A DNA stretch of 64,000 bases, taken from positions 35,015-99,014 of IMG/VR virus record IMGVR_UViG_3300027901_000002; one strand, written 5' to 3'. The DNA comes from a virus. The translations under genes and the position numbers were made by a program. Below, one piece after another: positions 1-35,160 of this stretch (positions are counted from its first letter, which is position 1; the number at the start of each line of letters is the position of its first letter). The notes beneath the pieces were generated by a model that was not told the origin of the DNA, searched no databases, and worked only from the letters and a program-made list of their open reading frames with translations.

Positions 1-774
1 ATCCATTCCAAATGGATAACTTGAAGTATTTGCAGCAAGAAAATCAAATCTAATAACTATGTATTTAATGTCTGTATAATCAACAGTTGCAGTTTCGTCT
101 ACAATTCTCCAATATATAGCTGTTGCTCCAGTAAAATTTGCTCCACTACAAGTTACTTGTGTGTTAGAATCTACGCTAGTTATTGTGTAATGTCCTTCGT
201 CTACTGATGGTCTATCAAGAATTAATGTATCTCCAACAGAAACCGTTGTAAGAAAATTTTGTCCAGCTTCTGTAAAAATTCCACTTGACGCAGTTGTTAC
301 ACCAGCGATTCCAGCGTCAACAGTTTCTCCTTGCATAAAAACGTCATCTTCGTCACCTGAACACAAAAGAACTTCCCAATTACCCATTCTCTCTTGATCT
401 CCGCCAAAACTCCATTCCCCCCATCTACCGCTTGCGGATGTTGGTAAGGCAGTACTATCGTACAATCTAATTCTTGTAGCTTCTCCATTAGCAAGATATT
501 GATTTCCGCCTTTTCCTTTGACTATATAAATCCATATTAAAAAGTCGTTTTGCGTAATATCTATTGTTGAAGGTAAAGTAAAATACATTGAATTCCATAA
601 CGGTTGTCCGCTAGTAGCGTAGAAATTATAACAATCAGTCCCTTGTTTAGGTTCGTAAGAACCGTTTGTTGCCATAGCATAAGTATACGGATCGCCGTAG
701 CAAGGACTCAAAGTCCAGGGGTTTGGCGTCCCTTCACAATCGTCTATCATAGTGTAGTTGGCTGTAACAGTCAC
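1..774 (-). CDS. Beta-rich hypothetical protein, possibly virion or surface-associated; runs off the left edge
   Basis: Manual translation: GTG at 774 overlaps the TGA of the upstream ORF (GTGA) and the frame stays open to position 1 (VTVTANYTMIDDCEG...TTVSVGDTLILD...GHYTITSVDSNTQVT). Missing from the ORF track because it is truncated. Confidence 0.75.
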   Translation of the reverse strand, partial: MTVTANYTMIDDCEGTPNPWTLSPCYGDPYTYAMATNGSYEPKQGTDCYNFYATSGQPLWNSMYFTLPSTIDITQNDFLIWIYIVKGKGGNQYLANGEATRIRLYDSTALPTSASGRWGEWSFGGDQERMGNWEVLLCSGDEDDVFMQGETVDAGIAGVTTASSGIFTEAGQNFLTTVSVGDTLILDRPSVDEGHYTITSVDSNTQVTCSGANFTGATAIYWRIVDETATVDYTDIKYIVIRFDFLAANTSSYPFGMD

Positions 775-1631
775 GTTCCTAACATCATTTGTATTATTTC
801 AGCAATTGTTGGTCTTAATAAAGTTTTTTTACAATTTTCACATAATCTGTCTGGATCAATGGGTCTCATTTTTCCTTCTCCAAATAATGAAGGAGGAGGT
901 GCTAAACAAGAATATTTCTTTTCTAATTTAATAGCTTCTTCTCTCGTAACTCGTGGAATTTGTTCTCTAAATCTCTTTTTGTTTTCGTACAAAATTTCGT
1001 TGCTTCCCAAACAAGCTTTTGCCATATTTAATAAAGAACACGCAGAATCCATCCAACCCATTATATCGTTGCATAAATTTAAGAGACTTTCGTCTGTTTG
1101 ATTTTCAAATCTTAATCTTTGTATTTCTGTAATATAATACATTAATCTTCCGTTCCACAAACAAGTTTCTTCAACGAATAAACTTTGCGTCGGAAATATC
1201 ATATCTTTAATTTCTGACGTAACTTGAACTGCTTGTTCAGTAGAGGCTAATTCGTCTAGTTGTTCTTCTTGTCTACATTGAGCGCAAAATTTTTTCGTGT
1301 CGTAAATATACCATTCCCCGTATAAAGGCGGATGCTCTACAATATTAATAGTTAAACCTAAATCGTAGCGATCGTTTATTTCTTTCGCTTGTTTCGTAGA
1401 TTCTGTGCAAAAATTAGTCAATTGACCTAGAAAAGTTGCGTGTGGCCTTATTTCGTGAATTTTATCTCTTACTTGTGGAGTTTGCTTTCTAAAATTTTTT
1501 TCTGTATCTATAAAAGAAGGATAAATAGTCTCCCTCCACAAACTTTTTCTTCCCATAGAAACTTTTCCTATTAAAAATATGTTGTAAGCACATTTTCTAA
1601 ATATTTCTTTTATATCTTGAAGCGCTCCCAT
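771..1631 (-). CDS. Hypothetical protein with CxxC motifs
   Basis: 286-aa ORF in operon context; CAQC and CENC motifs. Confidence 0.7.
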   Translation of the reverse strand: MGALQDIKEIFRKCAYNIFLIGKVSMGRKSLWRETIYPSFIDTEKNFRKQTPQVRDKIHEIRPHATFLGQLTNFCTESTKQAKEINDRYDLGLTINIVEHPPLYGEWYIYDTKKFCAQCRQEEQLDELASTEQAVQVTSEIKDMIFPTQSLFVEETCLWNGRLMYYITEIQRLRFENQTDESLLNLCNDIMGWMDSACSLLNMAKACLGSNEILYENKKRFREQIPRVTREEAIKLEKKYSCLAPPPSLFGEGKMRPIDPDRLCENCKKTLLRPTIAEIIQMMLGT

Positions 1632-2143: not shown

Positions 2144-3214
2144 TTATAAAACCATATCACCAGTAAATCTTAATAAGGTCGCTTGTTTTTTTTCTTTCTG
2201 TTTCTTTTGCTCTTTTGTTTCCTTTGGTTTTGTTTTCTTTTTCTTCCCATGTAACCAATCCTCTTTCTCCTCTTTTGGTTTAAACTTAATAGGAGGAAAA
2301 TTCATTTTCGCCCTCTTATCGTGTTTTCCAAAATTAAGAAGAATCCCGTTAAGATATTTTTGTTTGTAGTCGTATTTGTATGTGTCTACAAAAGACAAAT
2401 TTTCGCTTGGTGAGACACTTGAATAAAATTTATGAAGGTTGTTTCCCAACCAATTTAAAATAAAGATGAAAGGATGTTCGCAATTCTCGAAATCTTTTTT
2501 CTCACATTTTCCAGTCAATATTTTGTAAGCAACTTGCTGAGAACTAAGCTTTTCTTCTTCTATTGGTTTAAAGGATTTAATCCCACTCAATATGTTTCTC
2601 AAAGTCACTCGCATGTCGGAGTCGTAAATATCCTCAATGTCTCCCTGCCAATCTGGATATTTTTTCTTAACGAATTGCTCTACGTCCTTTCGAGTAGGAG
2701 CTTGAAGTTTTAGCGGAGTCATTTGTTTTGCGACTGTTGCGTGAACCGTATCTTTTTTATTGACAATTACAATAAAAGGATTTTTGGATTCTTTTACGTA
2801 AAAATTAATGAGAGCATAAGCTCTCCAGTAAAAGGAGTCTCCCTCTACTACGAAGATAGTGTTCCTCGTTTGTAGAGGGAGTTGTGCAAAATCCTTCAGT
2901 AAATCCTCGGTGTTTCTAGGATAAGAGTATTTTATCTGCCACCCAATTTCGCTGGCAATAAGTCTTGGGAGTGAGGATTTTCCAACGCCATGTTCGCCAA
3001 ACAAAAGGATTTTTTCGTTATTAAGGATAAGCTTTCGCAATTGATTTCTTTGTTTTTCGTTTCCCGCGATTAAAAAACTCGCCAAAATTTTTTTGCCTGT
3101 GTAATTTTCGTAAGCTGTTGTGCATTCTTCAACAGTTGAATTACACAGGCAAGCGATTTCAGGTAATGTAAACCTATTCTGATATACTAATTTTTTTACG
3201 CGTTTTCCTAACAT
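2144..3214 (-). CDS. rfcL: Replication factor C large-subunit-like AAA+ clamp loader with C-terminal PIP box
   Basis: Walker A GEHGVGKSS; SKNPFIVIVN and DMRVTLRNI RFC-like segments; lysine-rich tail ending KKQATLLRF (archaeal RFC-L PIP box). The start is more likely ATG 3214 than GTG 3244, which lies inside the upstream RNA structure. Confidence 0.75.
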   Translation of the reverse strand: MLGKRVKKLVYQNRFTLPEIACLCNSTVEECTTAYENYTGKKILASFLIAGNEKQRNQLRKLILNNEKILLFGEHGVGKSSLPRLIASEIGWQIKYSYPRNTEDLLKDFAQLPLQTRNTIFVVEGDSFYWRAYALINFYVKESKNPFIVIVNKKDTVHATVAKQMTPLKLQAPTRKDVEQFVKKKYPDWQGDIEDIYDSDMRVTLRNILSGIKSFKPIEEEKLSSQQVAYKILTGKCEKKDFENCEHPFIFILNWLGNNLHKFYSSVSPSENLSFVDTYKYDYKQKYLNGILLNFGKHDKRAKMNFPPIKFKPKEEKEDWLHGKKKKTKPKETKEQKKQKEKKQATLLRFTGDMVL

Positions 3215-3224
3215 AAATTTAAGT

Positions 3225-3352
3225 AAGGAAGGTCGGATTTGCACCGACGCTTTCTTAGGTGATGGTCTCAGTAAAGAAAGTCTAAAATAGATAAGCGGAC
3301 GTCCTTACCATCATTACCGTCAGTAGGCTTTACGCTATCTATTTTCTTCCTT
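3225..3352 (-). ncRNA. tRNA-like cloverleaf RNA (non-canonical)
   Basis: 7-bp closing stem AAGGAAG/CUUCCUU; T-arm GUCGG-UGCAAAU-CCGAC abutting it; long arm AAAAUAGAUAGCG/CGCUUAUCUAUUUU; arm CUUUCUU/AAGAAAG. Confidence 0.6.
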
Positions 3353-3441
3353 TATTTTATTTTATTTTTAAATTTTCTTAACATAAAAATATTTTAAACA
3401 TTTATAAATGTGTATTCCCAGACGAAGCATTTTTATTATTT

Positions 3442-3741
3442 TCAGATTTTTAAAAATAATAAAATAATCAAAATTGAAGTCGCTACGACGTTTCCAATCG
3501 AGGTATATAAAATAAACCTAAGAGTAGAGTTAATTTTTTGCGTTACGTTTAGTGTGTCTTGTAAAGTATCTAAAAGTTCGAGTATATCTTCTTCCATACT
3601 TAAGAAGAGTCCTAGCTCGTACAAATCTTTTTTCGTGTAAGACGAATTACATTCTTTACAATAAAATCTTTCGTAAACCCAATTCATTTCAATGTTTTTA
3701 TGTATCGGACAATTCATTAGTTGTTCGCCATTATTAAGCAA
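3442..3741 (-). CDS. Zn-ribbon protein with C-terminal membrane anchor
   Basis: CPIH...CKEC and a hydrophobic C-terminus. Confidence 0.55.
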   Translation of the reverse strand: MLNNGEQLMNCPIHKNIEMNWVYERFYCKECNSSYTKKDLYELGLFLSMEEDILELLDTLQDTLNVTQKINSTLRFILYTSIGNVVATSILIILLFLKI

Positions 3742-3970
3742 AGCGTTATAATTACGATAGATACGCCTAAAAACAAGGAAATAACAAAAAGGGCGTATTT
3801 TTTAAGTTGGTTCAATTTTTTCGACCTTAAAAGTAGTTTCGTTATCGATTCTTTCTGGATCTTGATTCCAAATCCTTTTAGTTGCTTTTCTAATCGCTTC
3901 GCACTCGTCTTCCGCTTCTACTTCTACTCTGTAAATATCTATCAAAAATTCTTTTACTTCTACTTTATAT

Positions 3971-4414
3971 TTAACCACTCATATCCACTCTTATTTCCAT
4001 TATTATACCATCTTCGATTTTTGCGTAAACTGGATACAATCCATCTCCAAATCCAGAATCAAAAGATACAGCTAAACCATCGTGTCCAAGGTGGAAAGGT
4101 ATTTGTTTGTAACTTTTTCCTTTTTTGTGAGAGACGTAATTGTAAGAAAATTCAAATTCTGGTTCGTAATGTATTCGAATCCATTGTTTAAGATCGTGTA
4201 TTAAGTTATTAGGTGTTAATCCTAGTTCTTTTATTTCTTGTTCGTAGCTATCAAAATCTTTACCATATTTGTATATTTTACCGCTTTCTTTGTCTCGATA
4301 TTCTCTTATATCTTCGTATTCGCCTTTTTTCCACCATTTAAGATAAGAAGGATCGCATATTATTAACTGTCCAGAATCTACTCCAACTACGCCAATTTTT
4401 TTCCATTCTGTCAT
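3971..4414 (-). CDS. DUF4241-like protein
   Basis: VGVDSGQLIICDP and SGFGDGLYPVYA motifs. Confidence 0.65.
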   Translation of the reverse strand: MTEWKKIGVVGVDSGQLIICDPSYLKWWKKGEYEDIREYRDKESGKIYKYGKDFDSYEQEIKELGLTPNNLIHDLKQWIRIHYEPEFEFSYNYVSHKKGKSYKQIPFHLGHDGLAVSFDSGFGDGLYPVYAKIEDGIIMEIRVDMSG

Positions 4415-4552
4415 TTCGAGTCGGTAGAGTTCGTCAACTCAGTGTTTCACATGCATGTTACGCACACCCCTGATAGCTCCTTGCTGTTGATTGAGGTAAG
4501 TGCAATGAGCACGTCTCTCGCTCCTTAGGAGTCCGTCTTAGGAGGCACCGAT
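4415..4552 (-). ncRNA. BHB-bounded intron/excised RNA element D (138 nt)
   Basis: 5' A-CGAG-AAA-UCGGUG (4559-4546) pairs with 3' UACCGA-CUCG-AAA-U (4426-4413); GC-rich with internal hairpins. Confidence 0.75.
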
Positions 4553-4965
4553 TTCTCGTCTAACTCTTTTAACCATCTATTTATAAAACCATTTATTTCG
4601 TGAGTTGGAACGTTATATCCGCTTGGACTACCTTCAGACCATTTGTTTAAAATTCTTTGCGTTTCTAACAAAACTAGTTCTGCCATAGTTTTTCTTTCTT
4701 TCAGAAGGTGTTGTTTTCTACTTAATTCCGCTTTTTCGTACATTCCATCTCTATAAAGCATTCTTGCAAACTTCATTTTTTGACGCAATTCAAAAATACC
4801 TAAATAATGACGATTAAACATTTCCACCAAAAACCTAGAATTTCGTCCTCTTTTTTCGAGCATTTTAATTGCTTTGTAAGTTCGCAAAAAATTACCAATA
4901 CTTAGTTTAATTGGATTAGTACTTATATTACTACAAATTGATTCTATTTTTTCTCTTTTTGACAT
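4525..4965 (-). CDS. Hypothetical protein; predicted to end ...ELDEK* after splicing
   Basis: 146-aa ORF whose last codons run into BHB element D. Confidence 0.65.
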   Translation of the reverse strand: MSKREKIESICSNISTNPIKLSIGNFLRTYKAIKMLEKRGRNSRFLVEMFNRHYLGIFELRQKMKFARMLYRDGMYEKAELSRKQHLLKERKTMAELVLLETQRILNKWSEGSPSGYNVPTHEINGFINRWLKELDEKSVPPKTDS

Positions 4966-5180
4966 TATTTTTCGTCTAATTTAGATATTGGACAATTTTC
5001 CCAATCTTGTGAATTGTAACAACCGCTAGTACATCCTCCTCCTTTGCCACATATTTCTCCACCACCTCTTAAATCTACAAGATATGGACATGTTGTTTTA
5101 CAAATCCACGTAACATGGTTCCAAGGGCAGTTGTTTATGTATTCACAACCTATACAATAATCTACGCTATAACTTGGCAT
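4965..5180 (-). CDS. Small Cys-rich protein
   Basis: Multiple Cys residues; ATG at 5180 directly follows the BHB 3' site; TAATG overlap with the next gene. Confidence 0.6.
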   Translation of the reverse strand: MPSYSVDYCIGCEYINNCPWNHVTWICKTTCPYLVDLRGGGEICGKGGGCTSGCYNSQDWENCPISKLDEK

Positions 5181-5182
5181 AT

Positions 5183-5327
5183 ATCGAGTCGGCCTCAATT
5201 GAGATTTTTGCTCTGGCTTGGGAAATTTGCATGCTTTCCAAAATAGTTAAAAGCTATAAAGTTTATAATCCAATGGGATCTCTAGTCCCTGTCTACCCCC
5301 CAAGAGGCCGTCGCAGAGCTTACCGAT
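5183..5327 (-). ncRNA. BHB-bounded intron/excised RNA element C (145 nt)
   Basis: 5' A-CGAG-AAA-UCGGU (5334-5322) pairs with 3' GCCGA-CUCG-AUA-U (5193-5181); internal GCUCUG/CAGAGC stem and hairpins. Confidence 0.7.
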
Positions 5328-5413
5328 TTCTCGTTCGGCGGGATGTAGTGACAATACGCACCGTCCCTATGTGACCTTCCTTATTACTCTTACGAGCTAT
5401 GCCCTATACCGAT
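5328..5413 (-). ncRNA. Structured middle segment B (86 nt) between two BHB elements, itself closable by a BHB-like motif
   Basis: CUCG-AAA-UCGGU (5419-5408) can pair with GCCGA-A-CGAG-AAA (5339-5327); hairpins CUC-GUAA-GAG and GGGA...UCCC. Confidence 0.5.
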
Positions 5414-5545
5414 TTCGAGTCAGCTGGAGCTCCCAAAGAACTTTCGGTTAGAGACGATATACGCTTCAACCTCCCCTGCATCCACTCGTGTAGAGTCTTT
5501 CTCTCTACTCAGGATCTACGGCTGTCCCGCTTCGTTCACGCTGAT
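5414..5545 (-). ncRNA. BHB-bounded intron/excised RNA element A (132 nt)
   Basis: 5' A-CGAG-AAA-UCAGC (5552-5540) pairs with 3' GCUGA-CUCG-AAA-U (5424-5412); inner helix shows compensatory changes relative to the other copies; hairpin GUAGAG/CUCUAC. Confidence 0.75.
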
Positions 5546-5863
5546 TTCTCGTATTCTTTCTTGTCTTCTTTTCTTAATTTCTTCTAACTCACTTTTCGGA
5601 ACTGGTTTTAACTTTACGCCTTCCGCAAAAACCAATTTTAATTCTTTTACCAATTCTTGCTTTACGCCGCTAATTTTAGGAGCAAATTTTGGAGGTTTCG
5701 GAGGAGGGTTCCAAGTAGGACGAGAAATAAATCTTTTCGTCCCAACGAACCTAAGAAAACTACTTCTATTTCTCCCTTCCAATTCTGCGTTTTCGTCTAT
5801 TTTCTTTAGCTCCTCTTCATTAACCCAAAAACTAATTTTTATTGCTCTTTTTCGATGCGACAT
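5516..5863 (-). CDS. Ribbon-helix-helix DNA-binding protein with a Pro-rich linker and C-terminal helix
   Basis: ISFWVNEEELKKIDENAELEGRNRSSFLR is a CopG/MobC-type RHH pattern. Confidence 0.7.
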   Translation of the reverse strand: MSHRKRAIKISFWVNEEELKKIDENAELEGRNRSSFLRFVGTKRFISRPTWNPPPKPPKFAPKISGVKQELVKELKLVFAEGVKLKPVPKSELEEIKKRRQERIREISVNEAGQP

Positions 5864-18376: not shown

Positions 18377-19799
18377 AATTCCTTACCACAACCACAACAA
18401 TAAATATAGACTGTTTCGCATTCCATTCCTATGTTAGTTTTGTCTATTTTTCGACAGGGTAACGTGAATTCTGCGTATTCGTGTTGAGTCCTTTCCCATT
18501 CGAAATTCTTAGAGCCGCATTTTGGACAACATTCTATATCCGTTAATCTATCAATAATATATTTTACAAATTCTTCTTCTTCGCATTTATCCATTTAAAT
18601 CAACAATTGTAAGTGTCTTGAAAAATTATTTTGTTACAATTTTTACATTTAATAACAATATAATCGTGATATTCTGGAAAAAAATTGGAGTCCAATTTTT
18701 TAATGTAATCTTCTTCTACTCCAAAACTAAACACGCCTAAATCCATTTCTATGGAACCGTAAAATTCTGTACAACCACATTCACACGATATTCCTTCTTC
18801 GTCTAAAATTTGGAGTAGGTATTCTTTTAATCCTTTCTCAAAATCTGACATCTAAATCAACTTGTCTATTATTTCTTCATTCATCGTACAATACCTTCCC
18901 ACAACAATTACAGTTTATTTTGTGATGTCCATGTGGATAAATTTCGTAAGGATGGTCGCTTATAACTTTACCTTTTTTATCGATATTTATAAAAGTACTA
19001 ATTGTTACGCAGAATTCGTCGTTTCCACAATCTGGACACTCTGGTTCGTCCAATTCTTCAATTAGCCACTCAAATTCACTCATTTTTTTCACTTTTTAAG
19101 TATGATTCTATACTGTTATAAGAGGAAGTGCGTTCTGTGTTACAGCTCGTGCACTTCCACGTGATTTTGACGAGGTTACCTTCTCGTTGTATTTTTATTC
19201 TTTTCCAATTATGATGACAAATTCGATAAGACACCTATCATCACAACAATTATGGCAATTAAGATAAATATTATGCAGACGATACAACCACAATACCAAG
19301 CTTTTTCGTGTGGTTGTTCGCGACTCATTGTTTAATGCCTAAAATTTTATAACTTCCGTCTTCATTTACTTCTATTTCAATTCCAATCTCACATAAACAA
19401 TAAGCGAAATTGCAGCTTATTGCGTCTTCGCTAAGTCCAATTTGTAATCCTTTTTCCCACATACTGTCTTTGTTTGAATGGAGATATATAACAGTTTTGT
19501 AAGGAAAAATTGGCTTTTCTTTCAAATATAATTTTATTCCACAACGAGGACAATATTCGTCCCCATATTTATGTTCGCAATTCATTTTAATCCTTCCTAT
19601 TATAAACAGAAACTTCGTTCCCTTTTATTATAACTCTAAATTTTGAGCCGCAATTTTTGCATTCACAATCACATCCTTTGTAAAGGGGCATTAATTTTAA
19701 CTCAATTTTCGTTTTACAGTCTGGACAATTAAATTCAATCATTTTTTTCCAACTAATCCTTTTAAAATTTCTTCTGTTGTGTGGTCTTCTTGATGCCAC
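18373..19799 (-). other. Array of small Zn-ribbon proteins
   Basis: CPKCG..CGCG, CECGC..CKNC, CPDCG..CNCCG, CPRCG, CPDC..CKNCG. Confidence 0.65.
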
Positions 19800-23646: not shown

Positions 23647-24729
23647 TTATAATTGTTCTATAAGACGAGGTTTAAAATCAATACCTTTTAAAAATTCTTC
23701 GACAAATTTTTGTTCTTTTTCGTCTTCAGACAATTTATTAACAATAATCGCTTGTACGCTTTGCTTCAAAAATCTTTTTCCCATTCTGGCTACAATTGAA
23801 GCAAAATTGACACACATTCTCGTTGAAAACAATCTGTTCAACGATTTATCTATTAAGGCGGCTTTTCTTAAATGGTCAGCCGCTTCTACGACGACTGAGG
23901 CAAATCCTTCAGAACAAGGAACATTTCTCGTAATAATTTCTATTTCTTTTCTTTTTTCTGGATAGTCAAATTTCCAACCTATTGGAAACCTATCGTTAAA
24001 AGCTTCTTGTAATTCGTTAATTCCAAGTACATTAAAATTAACTGTCGCGATTACAATTAATTTTGCGTCTGAATTTAAACCGTGTCGTTCGCTAGATTTT
24101 GATATTAAGTTTAAATGTCCCTCGGATAAAATTCCATTAAGAGAAATCTGTTCTGGCGTTTGAATTGTATTTGCTTCGTTTATAATTAAAAAACAAATTC
24201 CGTTTTTGTTTGCTTCTTTAACGGCTAAAACTAAAGGGCCGTAACTAAATCGAGTTTGTCCATTAATTATTTCCCAACAACCCTCTAAATCTCTTCTGTC
24301 TAATTGAGGACTTCCATCTATTATGAAGTATCTTGAATTAAAGTGTTTCGCTAACGAAATTGCGAGTAGAGTTTTACCAGTACCTGGAGGGCCGCTGAGT
24401 AATATACCAAGACTTTTTCCTTGTTCAGCAATTTTTATACATTCCATTAGATAGTCGAGTTCTCTCCCTTGTTGAACATATCGTTGTTCTTCACAATACC
24501 TTCTTCTATTTTGTTTTTTTGCAAAATGTGCTTGTTTTGCAAATTCTATGGCTTTGTCTCTCCTTAAAATAGTTTTTGTATGTTTTTTAGTCCAAAAGAA
24601 AGTTTCGCCACATTCTAAACATTCTATAACATAATCTCCGTCGTCTCTGTTTCTTATTTTAAGACAATTAGTGTGACAATCTTGACATTTCATGTTACGA
24701 AGCGATTGTCCTAATCTTTTATCTACCAT
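23647..24729 (-). CDS. MoxR-family (CbbQ/NirQ/NorQ-like) AAA+ ATPase with N-terminal Zn ribbon
   Basis: GPPGTGKT; LIINEAN (Walker B with N in place of D); QEAFNDRF; FSTR. Confidence 0.85.
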   Translation of the reverse strand: MVDKRLGQSLRNMKCQDCHTNCLKIRNRDDGDYVIECLECGETFFWTKKHTKTILRRDKAIEFAKQAHFAKKQNRRRYCEEQRYVQQGRELDYLMECIKIAEQGKSLGILLSGPPGTGKTLLAISLAKHFNSRYFIIDGSPQLDRRDLEGCWEIINGQTRFSYGPLVLAVKEANKNGICFLIINEANTIQTPEQISLNGILSEGHLNLISKSSERHGLNSDAKLIVIATVNFNVLGINELQEAFNDRFPIGWKFDYPEKRKEIEIITRNVPCSEGFASVVVEAADHLRKAALIDKSLNRLFSTRMCVNFASIVARMGKRFLKQSVQAIIVNKLSEDEKEQKFVEEFLKGIDFKPRLIEQL

Positions 24730-25470: not shown

Positions 25471-26382
25471 TTAAATCTTATTTAACAATAAATTGTTGTC
25501 TTCTAATAACTTTAAAAATTCTTTTGGACGCGTTCTATTTAAATGTTCTTTTCCATTTCCAAAATTTCGCGCCAAAAATCTTAAATAATCCATTATAGTT
25601 CCTCGAGTAAGATAACGCCACTGTTCTTCGTCTCCAGAAAAATCCTTTATGTAAAGTTCGTGGTTAAATTTAACAGCAACAATATGATAGTCTCTATACC
25701 AACTTCTTTGTTTAAAGAAGTAAATTGTTCCTCTGATTCTAAGCCACATTGTAAATGATGTATACCACGTATCGGCTATCTGGCGAAATCCCTCGTCGAT
25801 TCGAGTGTGTATTTCTAACGCTTTTCTTCTTCTTTCCATTTCTTTATCGTACGCTTCTAATTGAGACATTTTATCTCTTAAGTAAGGGGAAGCAGATATT
25901 TCTTCTGGAGTAAAACCAAATTTTTTGTAAAATCTCCAACCGTCGTAAGTCGACGGGCTCGGAATGAAATAATCTATTAATTTTTTGTTTGCAATATATT
26001 TTTCGTCTATTTGTTTTATCAAAAATTCTTTGTATTTTGGATTTGCCAACGACAATTCTTTTAACAAAGGCCACGACAAACTACTATGCAGCAAACGACA
26101 ATCGCAATCGTGCTCTATCCACGCTTGTAAATTAGAACAATGTCCCCAAAATTCGTCTTCTGGAGGAATTTTAAATTGTGTGGCTTGATATTCTGTTTGA
26201 TATGTACTCAAATCGTCTATCGACTCTATTTTATTTATTTTGTCGAAATTGCTTGGAGTGAGAACTACCAATAAATATTTACACATGCTTATGTACTTAT
26301 CGTTTATGTAAATATTTGTTTTTTTGCCTTCTAATTTAACTTCCATTTCTTCAGTAATTTTATAACATAATGATTCTGTCAT
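25471..26382 (-). CDS. Protein with Lokiarchaeia-type N-terminal domain
   Basis: KLEGKKTNIYIND...CKYLL...ESIDD...IPPEDEFWGHCSNLQAWIE...RLLHSSLSWPLLKEL resembles a domain I recall from Lokiarchaeia proteins, often LRR-fused. Confidence 0.7.
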   Translation of the reverse strand: MTESLCYKITEEMEVKLEGKKTNIYINDKYISMCKYLLVVLTPSNFDKINKIESIDDLSTYQTEYQATQFKIPPEDEFWGHCSNLQAWIEHDCDCRLLHSSLSWPLLKELSLANPKYKEFLIKQIDEKYIANKKLIDYFIPSPSTYDGWRFYKKFGFTPEEISASPYLRDKMSQLEAYDKEMERRRKALEIHTRIDEGFRQIADTWYTSFTMWLRIRGTIYFFKQRSWYRDYHIVAVKFNHELYIKDFSGDEEQWRYLTRGTIMDYLRFLARNFGNGKEHLNRTRPKEFLKLLEDNNLLLNKI

Positions 26383-34743: not shown

Positions 34744-35160
34744 ATGGAAGAAAATACCTCGCTTGCAAAAAAAGAGGACGCGCAAGCCCTTGCAAAGACA
34801 GAAGAGGAGGGCACTCTTGCCTTCGAAGTTGCGGTGGAAATGGCAAAGAACCACAACAAAATCATGGAGGTCGTTGAAAAACTCTTCAATGATATTCGCG
34901 TAGAAGTTATAGAAGACGACGAAGGCAACAAGATCGGACAAAGGACTCACGTTCCGCCTCAACTTATCAAATGGCTAAGAGAAGCTCGTATGTACGAGAA
35001 CGACATGTGGAAACTGGGAGGAGGAGAAATCGAACAGGAACACGAAAAGAGAAAACTCGAAGTTAAAGCCAAACTAATTATGACGTTAATCGGAACTGAC
35101 CCAGAAGAAAGAGAGAAGTTGATGGAACAATGGAAAGAAACAGTGAGCTTCAAGAAATAA
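34744..35160 (+). CDS. Putative terminase small subunit
   Basis: Position immediately upstream of and overlapping terL; TTTATAAA at 34710-34717 upstream. Confidence 0.5.
   Translation: MEENTSLAKKEDAQALAKTEEEGTLAFEVAVEMAKNHNKIMEVVEKLFNDIRVEVIEDDEGNKIGQRTHVPPQLIKWLREARMYENDMWKLGGGEIEQEHEKRKLEVKAKLIMTLIGTDPEEREKLMEQWKETVSFKK

Follow-up and report, generated by a model that had tools for sequence, protein, structure and literature searches.

Stacked bulge-helix-bulge motifs at a gene junction of a probably archaeal virus and the predicted order of their removal

The closest described counterparts of the locus treated here are archaeal introns recognised at a motif known as bulge-helix-bulge (BHB). 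In archaeal pre-tRNAs such introns can be nested and order-dependent, as told in those passages of PMC3978253 that cite Sugahara 2007 and Tocchini-Valentini 2009. BHB introns are also known from messenger RNAs, as shown by the one in the cbf5 pre-mRNA of Crenarchaeota (PMC2738675) and by the EndA-cut intron in the 5′ untranslated region of Haloferax HVO_1309, which also yields a circle (PMC7714728). In the transposed tRNA-intron families of Thermoproteales, similar introns at different sites imply mobility (Fujishima 2010, as cited in PMC4090602); in its passages on these families the latter work calls the mechanism of spread unknown, and the BHB requirement is thought to define the targets. 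No report of BHB introns in a virus was found in the literature searched. Here we describe a 363-nt block of three head-to-tail segments, named A, M and B (5545-5183, minus strand), and a fourth member, C, located 0.8 kb downstream, all of them in a 64,000-nt stretch (the window) that covers positions 35,015 to 99,014 of the virus genome IMGVR_UViG_3300027901_000002. An earlier reading of this DNA, the original prediction, proposed recursive and combinatorial splicing at the block, in which the removal of A regenerates a splice site. The explanation that we favour, and which we hold with evenly balanced confidence, is that the block is a stack of archaeal EndA-spliced BHB introns of one small family built by serial insertion.

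Geometry and common origin of the inserts

Inserts and genes all lie on the minus strand and share the orientation of an operon whose small genes are tightly packed. The sites and segments are the following (positions of the window):

5540-5554, minus strand: 5′ site S1, AUA-CGAG-AAA-UCAGC, with CGAG at 5551-5548, AAA at 5547-5545 and UCAGC at 5544-5540
5414-5545, minus strand: insert A, 132 nt, about 50% GC; outer helix of 1, centre of 4 and inner helix of 5 bp; relaxed HBh′ type
5408-5424, minus strand: shared site, 3′ of A and 5′ of M, with GCUGA at 5424-5420, CUCG at 5419-5416, AAA at 5415-5413 and UCGGU at 5412-5408
5328-5413, minus strand: segment M, 86 nt, 52% GC; outer helix of 5, centre of 4 and inner helix of 5 bp, with one extra A
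5322-5339, minus strand: shared site, 3′ of M and 5′ of B, with GCCGA at 5339-5335, the extra A, CGAG at 5333-5330, AAA at 5329-5327 and UCGGU at 5326-5322
5183-5327, minus strand: insert B, 145 nt, with a GC-rich 5′ half and 65 AT-rich nt at the 3′ side
5179-5193, minus strand: last 3′ site, with GCCGA at 5193-5189, CUCG at 5188-5185, AUA at 5184-5182 and UAU at 5181-5179
4415-4552, minus strand: insert C, 138 nt, between the gene for a 146-aa protein and a DUF4241-like gene; fourth family member

The boundaries read CGAG-AAA-UCGGU on their 5′ side (with UCAGC as the last part in A) and RCCGA-CUCG-AWA on their 3′ side (with GCUGA as the first part in A). Once paired, these strings show the BHB geometry of archaea: a CGAG:CUCG centre of 4 bp, an inner helix of 5 bp and, on either strand, a bulge of 3 nt located 3′ of the central helix. 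A 4-bp centre with two opposite 3-nt bulges occurs in perfect form in A, B, C and in the composite site made of the two ends of the block, while M shows one extra A opposite the 5′ bulge. Segment M also has a helix polarity opposite to that of the other segments (CUCG...CGAG). At S1, which may pair with either 5424-5413 or 5193-5179, the predicted cut falls at 5546/5545; at the last 3′ site it falls at 5183/5182, and there the ATG at 5180-5178 shares letters with UAU, the strand of the outer helix. Regarding the flanking helices, each of at least 2 bp in the strict hBHBh′ form, the inner one has 5 bp everywhere. The outer one has 3 bp in the composite site (5551 with 5188) and 5 bp in M, whereas A, B and C alone have 1 bp each and so belong to the relaxed HBh′ type.

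A generic BHB pattern is unspecific in this DNA, with 778 Watson-Crick matches compared to about 630 in shuffled sequence; the specific ends are more telling. Two exact copies of the 12-mer CGAGAAATCGGT stand in the window, and two variants with 2 mismatches were found among the site matches, all four within 1.1 kb and on one strand. The partner 3′ motif occurs in three copies interleaved with the 12-mer sites, and this 1.1-kb cluster is the only place in the 99-kb genome where the 12-mer or its variants are correctly interleaved with the 3′ motif. Moreover, outside structural genes the insert stretches are the sole places of that genome where 120 nt reach a GC content of at least 0.5 (genome mean 0.335); the motifs coincide both with GC islands (about 50% versus 33.5%) and with gene junctions. 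In energetic terms, we took as cost the free energy of forcing a BHB in its local context, and 60 random BHB-like matches of the same genome as control. The BHB of A or C can be forced in its local context at 1.0 kcal/mol, in comparison with 1.3-17.1 kcal/mol for the controls (median 8.2, n=60), and those of A and C are both part of minimum-energy folds (z −1.84 for C).

The inserts resemble each other at their ends. Homology among C, B and A extends over 31 nt at the 5′ end (74% and 65% identity, with 74% for B against C) and over 12-14 nt at the 3′ end, whereas the interiors give no alignment; judged by these ends, A, B and C are one family. Their insertion points, marked here with a slash, read GACGAGAA/AUGACA for C, AACGAGAA/AUAUGCC for B and UACGAGAA/AUCGGU for A, and all three have in common the 9-nt string ACGAGAA^AU (ACGAGAA^AT in DNA). 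Since AU forms the beginning of every insert, the 5′ junction restores the target, and a later copy can thus land exactly in front of an older one. A regenerated splice site would therefore be the mechanical outcome of serial insertion into a shared target that each insert rebuilds.

Under the explanation we favour, repeated insertion into ACGAGAA^AT would have built the stack, with A as a later copy that landed in front of the older M+B, and with C as a solitary member. The 5′ exon would supply the CGAG strand and each insert would bring its own 3′ CUCG together with its own inner helix (UCGGU/RCCGA). The host EndA would see a 4-bp helix with two 3-nt bulges and cut there, and RtcB would then join the exons and circularise the insert.

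Order of removal and predicted products

The coordinates, strings and lengths of the original prediction were all recovered on the minus strand, in the sequence as well as by splicing in silico. Removal of A (5545-5414, 132 nt) gives AAUA-CGAG-AA/A-UCGGU, and this rebuilt site forms with 5193-5179 a fuller BHB of 3 outer, 4 central and 5 inner pairs, one of the inner ones a G-U, around the further 231 nt to be removed. The pairing of 5424-5408 with 5339-5322 around the 86-nt middle segment was equally borne out, two of its five outer pairs being G-U. In this regard, what has to be corrected is the sense in which A regenerates a site. A complete 5′ site is indeed rebuilt, but its outer pairing exists beforehand: in the precursor, 5551/5188 already has four of the five inner pairs and the same 3-bp outer helix, so that the site is improved and not created by the removal of A. 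The costs of the competing pairings are as follows:

A in the precursor: outer 1, centre 4, inner 5 bp; 2.9 kcal/mol
M in the precursor (one extra A): outer 5, centre 4, inner 5 bp; 2.4 kcal/mol
B in the precursor: outer 1, centre 4, inner 5 bp; 3.2 kcal/mol
Whole block (5551 with 5188) in the precursor: outer 3, centre 4, inner 4 of 5 bp; 5.2 kcal/mol
Rebuilt site with 5193-5179 after removal of A: outer 3, centre 4, inner 5 of 5 bp; 2.8 kcal/mol

As the CGAG/CUCG core is common to all sites, several mutually exclusive pairings arise. The strand CUCG at 5419-5416 can pair with 5551-5548 or with 5333-5330, never with both, and since this strand and CGAG at 5333-5330 are each shared by neighbouring segments, the block has two exclusive states, one with A and B paired and the other with M and the outer pair. 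A true order dependence follows for M, whose 5′ strand (CUCG 5419-5416) leaves with A: once A is gone the centre helix of M keeps 2 of its 4 pairs and M is unexcisable alone, so that it can be excised only before A or together with B. If A and B were cut independently, M would be retained as a stranded segment in a dead end, because it needs the 3′ end of A. On paper, full removal (junction 5546/5182) would be reached by three routes: A and then M+B; M, then A and then B; or the 363 nt in one step.

The C-termini proposed for the ribbon-helix-helix (RHH) protein encoded upstream of the block were also reproduced in silico, with REISVNEAGQP* for the unspliced RNA, REIGIGHSS* when M is kept (M carries the stop codon used once A is removed) and REICQVIA* after full removal. 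Full excision of A-M-B produces a 19-nt gene overlap, and the flanking genes are ORFans that offer no conserved product for comparison. Excision of C gives GAG AA/A TGA, that is, an ATGA stop/start overlap with the next gene. The further proposal that two whole genes might be looped out (5333/4420, 913 nt) is possible on paper, by a pairing with 4 bp in the centre and 5 bp in the inner helix, although with a single outer pair.

Altogether, the structural logic of recursive and combinatorial splicing is sound and its pairings are exclusive, but the regenerated site cannot be taken as independent evidence of a designed programme; it is most likely, as the shared target suggests, a by-product of repeated insertion at one target. 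Re-splicing at the block, which has precedent, is partly supported, and tandem insertion with the rebuilt site as its by-product is the simplest reading. It is possible but doubtful that re-splicing in steps takes place in cells, and that the virus makes use of the alternative outcomes seems improbable. The same low expectation applies to the idea that an Asgard virus employs the tRNA-splicing enzymes of its host for real alternative splicing. According to this idea, the exclusive pairings among CGAG, CUCG, CGAG and CUCG would route the polycistronic RNA to either a fully spliced or an M-keeping form, which would differ in the tail of the RHH regulator, in downstream coupling and in the circular RNAs released.

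Genomic setting and competing explanations

The virus genome is complete, measures 99,014 bp and carries terminal repeats. The virus is tailed, and its genes include those for terminase, portal, baseplate J protein and VgrG-like spike. An archaeal host is probable in view of a TFIIB-like gene in the genome, of the look-alikes of virus proteins and of the occurrence in marine sediment, which is the source of the runs holding this virus. More precisely, the host is probably found among the Asgard archaea (Promethearchaeota) of marine sediment, to which most of the look-alikes in features and structure of two virus proteins belong, although these are leads only. In the virus genome no genes were found for EndA, RtcB, reverse transcriptase, TnpB, a LAGLIDADG enzyme, a transposase or a homing endonuclease; any splicing or mobility would consequently depend on the host. 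The genes that flank the inserts are:

5516-5863, minus strand: RHH / NikA-like gene, 115 aa as written; Pfam NikA-like at E 2e-7 and RHH_1 at E 5e-4
4965-5180, minus strand: Cys-rich 71-aa gene from the list of open reading frames (ORFs), which adjoins the A-M-B block downstream; searches returned only itself
4525-4965, minus strand: 146-aa ORFan gene, with its last 9 codons within insert C
3971-4414, minus strand: DUF4241-like gene (Pfam DUF4241 at E 6e-8), with its ATG exactly at the 3′ cut of C

The inserts occupy the only two long gaps of the operon (335 and 110 nt), all remaining junctions being overlaps or spacers of at most 14 nt, and the final 8 codons of the RHH gene as written (SVNEAGQP) lie inside insert A. 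In four further runs, from marine sediment and seawater, contigs are letter-identical to the window over C, M and parts of A and B, and such identity in four independent runs indicates that the block is real DNA; among the DNA contigs of those runs no joint lacking an insert was found.

Relatives of these genes are scarce. Searches with the RHH and Cys-rich proteins returned only themselves, as did the one with the 146-aa protein among 1.84 billion representatives; in viral_contigs no relatives turned up for the 146-aa, TFIIB-like and 366-aa proteins, and in GenBank phages the terminase TerL has only distant ones, at less than 30% identity. The lack of homologues follows from the ORFan nature of the flanking genes. 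Nor was a second copy of the inserts found in viral_contigs (two patterns) or in GenBank phages (blastn). In metagenome and genome contigs the pattern gave about 90 matches each, with none from Asgard genomes, and since almost all are in GC-rich bacteria and show no interior similarity they are read as chance matches. A separate observation concerns the AT-rich, virus-like metagenome contig Ga0114925_10093818, in which positions 729-884 (minus strand) carry the end strings CGAGAAAUCGGUAAAG ... GCCGACUCG around a 150-nt stretch of 44% GC. This stretch lies inside an HNH-like ORF that stays in frame whether it is kept or removed, and the contig shows no protein similarity to this virus; it may be either a second family member or a chance match.

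In contigs of two relatives the similarity breaks off within 2-7 nt of S1 and gives way to AT-rich sequence. In one of them the match to the RHH gene reaches 5553, which is 2 nt before CGAG, and AT-rich coding sequence comes next; an 82-nt relative contig matches 5590-5558 and then shows a stop, GGAGGUG and AUGCCA, the latter being identical to the start of the Cys-rich gene. These contigs are consistent with strains lacking the block, a weak hint from sequences too short to serve as proof.

Several observations weigh against a stack of spliced introns. The insert interiors fold no better than their shuffles (z 0.5, 0.3, 0.0 and −0.85). None of the runs listed as containing this virus is on record as RNA, and the predicted junctions are unseen. 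As the flanking genes and the inserts have no homologues, there is neither a clean empty site nor covariation. Four copies of ACGAGAAAT are unoccupied, at 23931 (minus), 28992 (plus) and 5720 (plus) of the window and at 25656 (plus) of the genome, so insertion is not saturating. Full excision leaves the RHH gene without a neat stop. The Cys-rich gene may be expressed without splicing, given the TATA-like runs and the GAGG found in B, and with this GAGG before its ATG the unspliced RNA may be translatable as it stands. Finally, because A, B and C alone have 1-bp outer helices, their excision would need an endonuclease of broad specificity, and a strict enzyme might cut only the composite site and M. 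In this respect, 92-95% of the tRNA genes of some Asgard genomes hold introns, often several and at non-canonical positions (PMC11291895), which makes a permissive endonuclease plausible in this lineage.

Among the other explanations, the one that survives best, though we consider it unlikely, is that the inserts are DNA elements similar to miniature inverted-repeat transposable elements (MITEs), with imperfect terminal inverted repeats and never removed from RNA. Translation of the downstream genes would then draw on the unspliced polycistronic RNA, or else on a promoter that B contains. Several traits suit such elements: the ends are conserved while the interiors are unrelated and not specially structured, the GC content is foreign to the genome, and the placement is intergenic. 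The 3′ part of B (5183-5250, minus strand) suits them too. It is AT-rich unlike the remaining block, and its TATA-like runs, some 45-55 nt upstream of the start codon at 5180, together with a GAGG 12 nt before this ATG, at the end of B, may act as an internal promoter and as a site for ribosome binding. A, C and M also show what may be a 4-nt duplication (GAAA), which points in this direction, but it is ambiguous, is not adjacent to the inverted ends and is absent at B, which has no clean target duplication; that is, the terminal inverted repeats are not directly flanked by a target-site duplication as those of MITEs are. Moreover, the repeats are offset by exactly 3 nt per strand in all four copies, which leaves a 4-bp helix between two 3-nt bulges, a geometry without reason in a transposon, and at three separate sites the inserted unit does not include the half-helix CGAG, which lies beyond it. 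The want of any transposase, TnpB, reverse transcriptase or homing-endonuclease gene in the virus speaks in the same sense.

Less probable still is a single intron made of the whole 363-nt block (5546/5545 and 5183/5182), in which the internal sites would go unused, as remnants left by old insertions or duplications. A proper outer helix (3 bp) is found only in the outer pair, which in the precursor already keeps 4 of 5 inner pairs, whereas inside the block the outer helices of A and B measure 1 bp, and a stricter host enzyme would recognise full motifs only. Yet M is also a full motif, the outer pairing in the precursor costs 5.2 kcal/mol against 2.4-3.2 for the local ones and spans 363 nt, and the motif of A is the first to form during transcription and is part of the minimum-energy fold.

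Slightly behind comes the improbable alternative that the sites exist for their products, namely stable circular RNAs made by host enzymes or a helix switch that would set the RHH tail and the downstream coupling. Its appeal lies in the four helix strands that resolve into two exclusive states (A with B, or M plus outer pair) with different end products, in the identity of the inserts in contigs of several samples, and in the EndA-made circles known from an mRNA leader of Haloferax (PMC7714728). Nevertheless, there is no conservation showing selection, the alternative tails are short, unremarkable peptides, and serial insertion explains the arrangement fully. The interiors are no more structured than shuffles, and a search of Rfam, with self-splicing introns and small ribozymes included, gave nothing in 3100-5700 even at E ≤ 5 and nothing at gathering score in the whole window, in which no known tRNAs or ribozymes were called either. 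Generic BHB patterns are common in AT-rich DNA, but chance resemblance or an assembly artefact is very hard to believe in when the exact 12-mer and its interleaved partner recur only in this cluster, the motifs coincide with GC islands and gene junctions, and independent runs hold the identical sequence.

Other features of the genome were recorded along the way. In the same operon, 3215-3360 (minus strand) is strongly structured and RNA-like, with a minimum free energy of −39.5 kcal/mol in comparison with −25.4 kcal/mol for shuffles (z −3.9), a stability that none of the 200 shuffled versions reached. It is closed by a 7-bp stem, includes a hairpin similar to a T-arm and gives no ARAGORN or Rfam call. 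The neighbouring 366-aa ORF (2144-3244, minus strand) has no Pfam match at E ≤ 0.001. Elsewhere, the family B DNA polymerase (PolB) is split into two genes (424 and 554 aa) with about 0.9 kb between them that holds five small Zn-ribbon ORFs. Most of this gap is spanned by a strong BHB-like pairing at 18496/17602 of the genome (minus strand), with 3 outer bp, an AGUU:AACU centre and 10 inner bp. As a means to rejoin the split polymerase this pairing was rejected, since it would join the N-terminal part in frame to a 69-aa ORF and not to the C-terminal part.

Comparison with known spliced introns

If the cuts occur, this locus would be a case of messenger-RNA splicing by the tRNA machinery in a virus, in which the order of removal of stacked introns changes the product, and of alternative splicing in a simple, prokaryote-style form, within a lineage that stands near the origin of eukaryotes. 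If they do not occur, we would be dealing with an ordinary small family of insertion elements. With the 9-nt target rebuilt by each insert, the spread and accumulation of protein-spliced introns can be pictured in concrete terms that are open to testing. Three things are new here with respect to the described systems: the inserts are stacked at a gene junction, their helix strands are shared and compete, and their target is a common string of 9 nt.

As in the nested introns of archaeal pre-tRNAs, the segments of the block sit at or inside each other's junctions, and the same endonuclease and ligase would be expected to act on them. In those pre-tRNAs the last motif becomes complete only after the others have been removed, whereas here the outer motif is nearly complete before the first cut. 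Unlike them, the block lies in a viral polycistronic mRNA at a gene junction, its inserts measure 86-145 nt instead of tens of nt, and one order of cutting is a dead end that leaves a segment behind.

The introns of cbf5 and HVO_1309 share with the present ones a tRNA-type motif in a messenger RNA, for which ligation of the exons and a circular intron would be expected. Those are single introns of cellular genes, proven with RNA or in vitro; here there are four predicted introns, three of them stacked, in a virus and at gene ends rather than inside a conserved domain. With the transposed families of Thermoproteales, in turn, our inserts have in common the presence of similar sequences at different sites. 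They depart from these families in that only their ends are alike (12-31 nt), their targets have a 9-nt string in common, and they occupy the junctions of protein genes in a virus.

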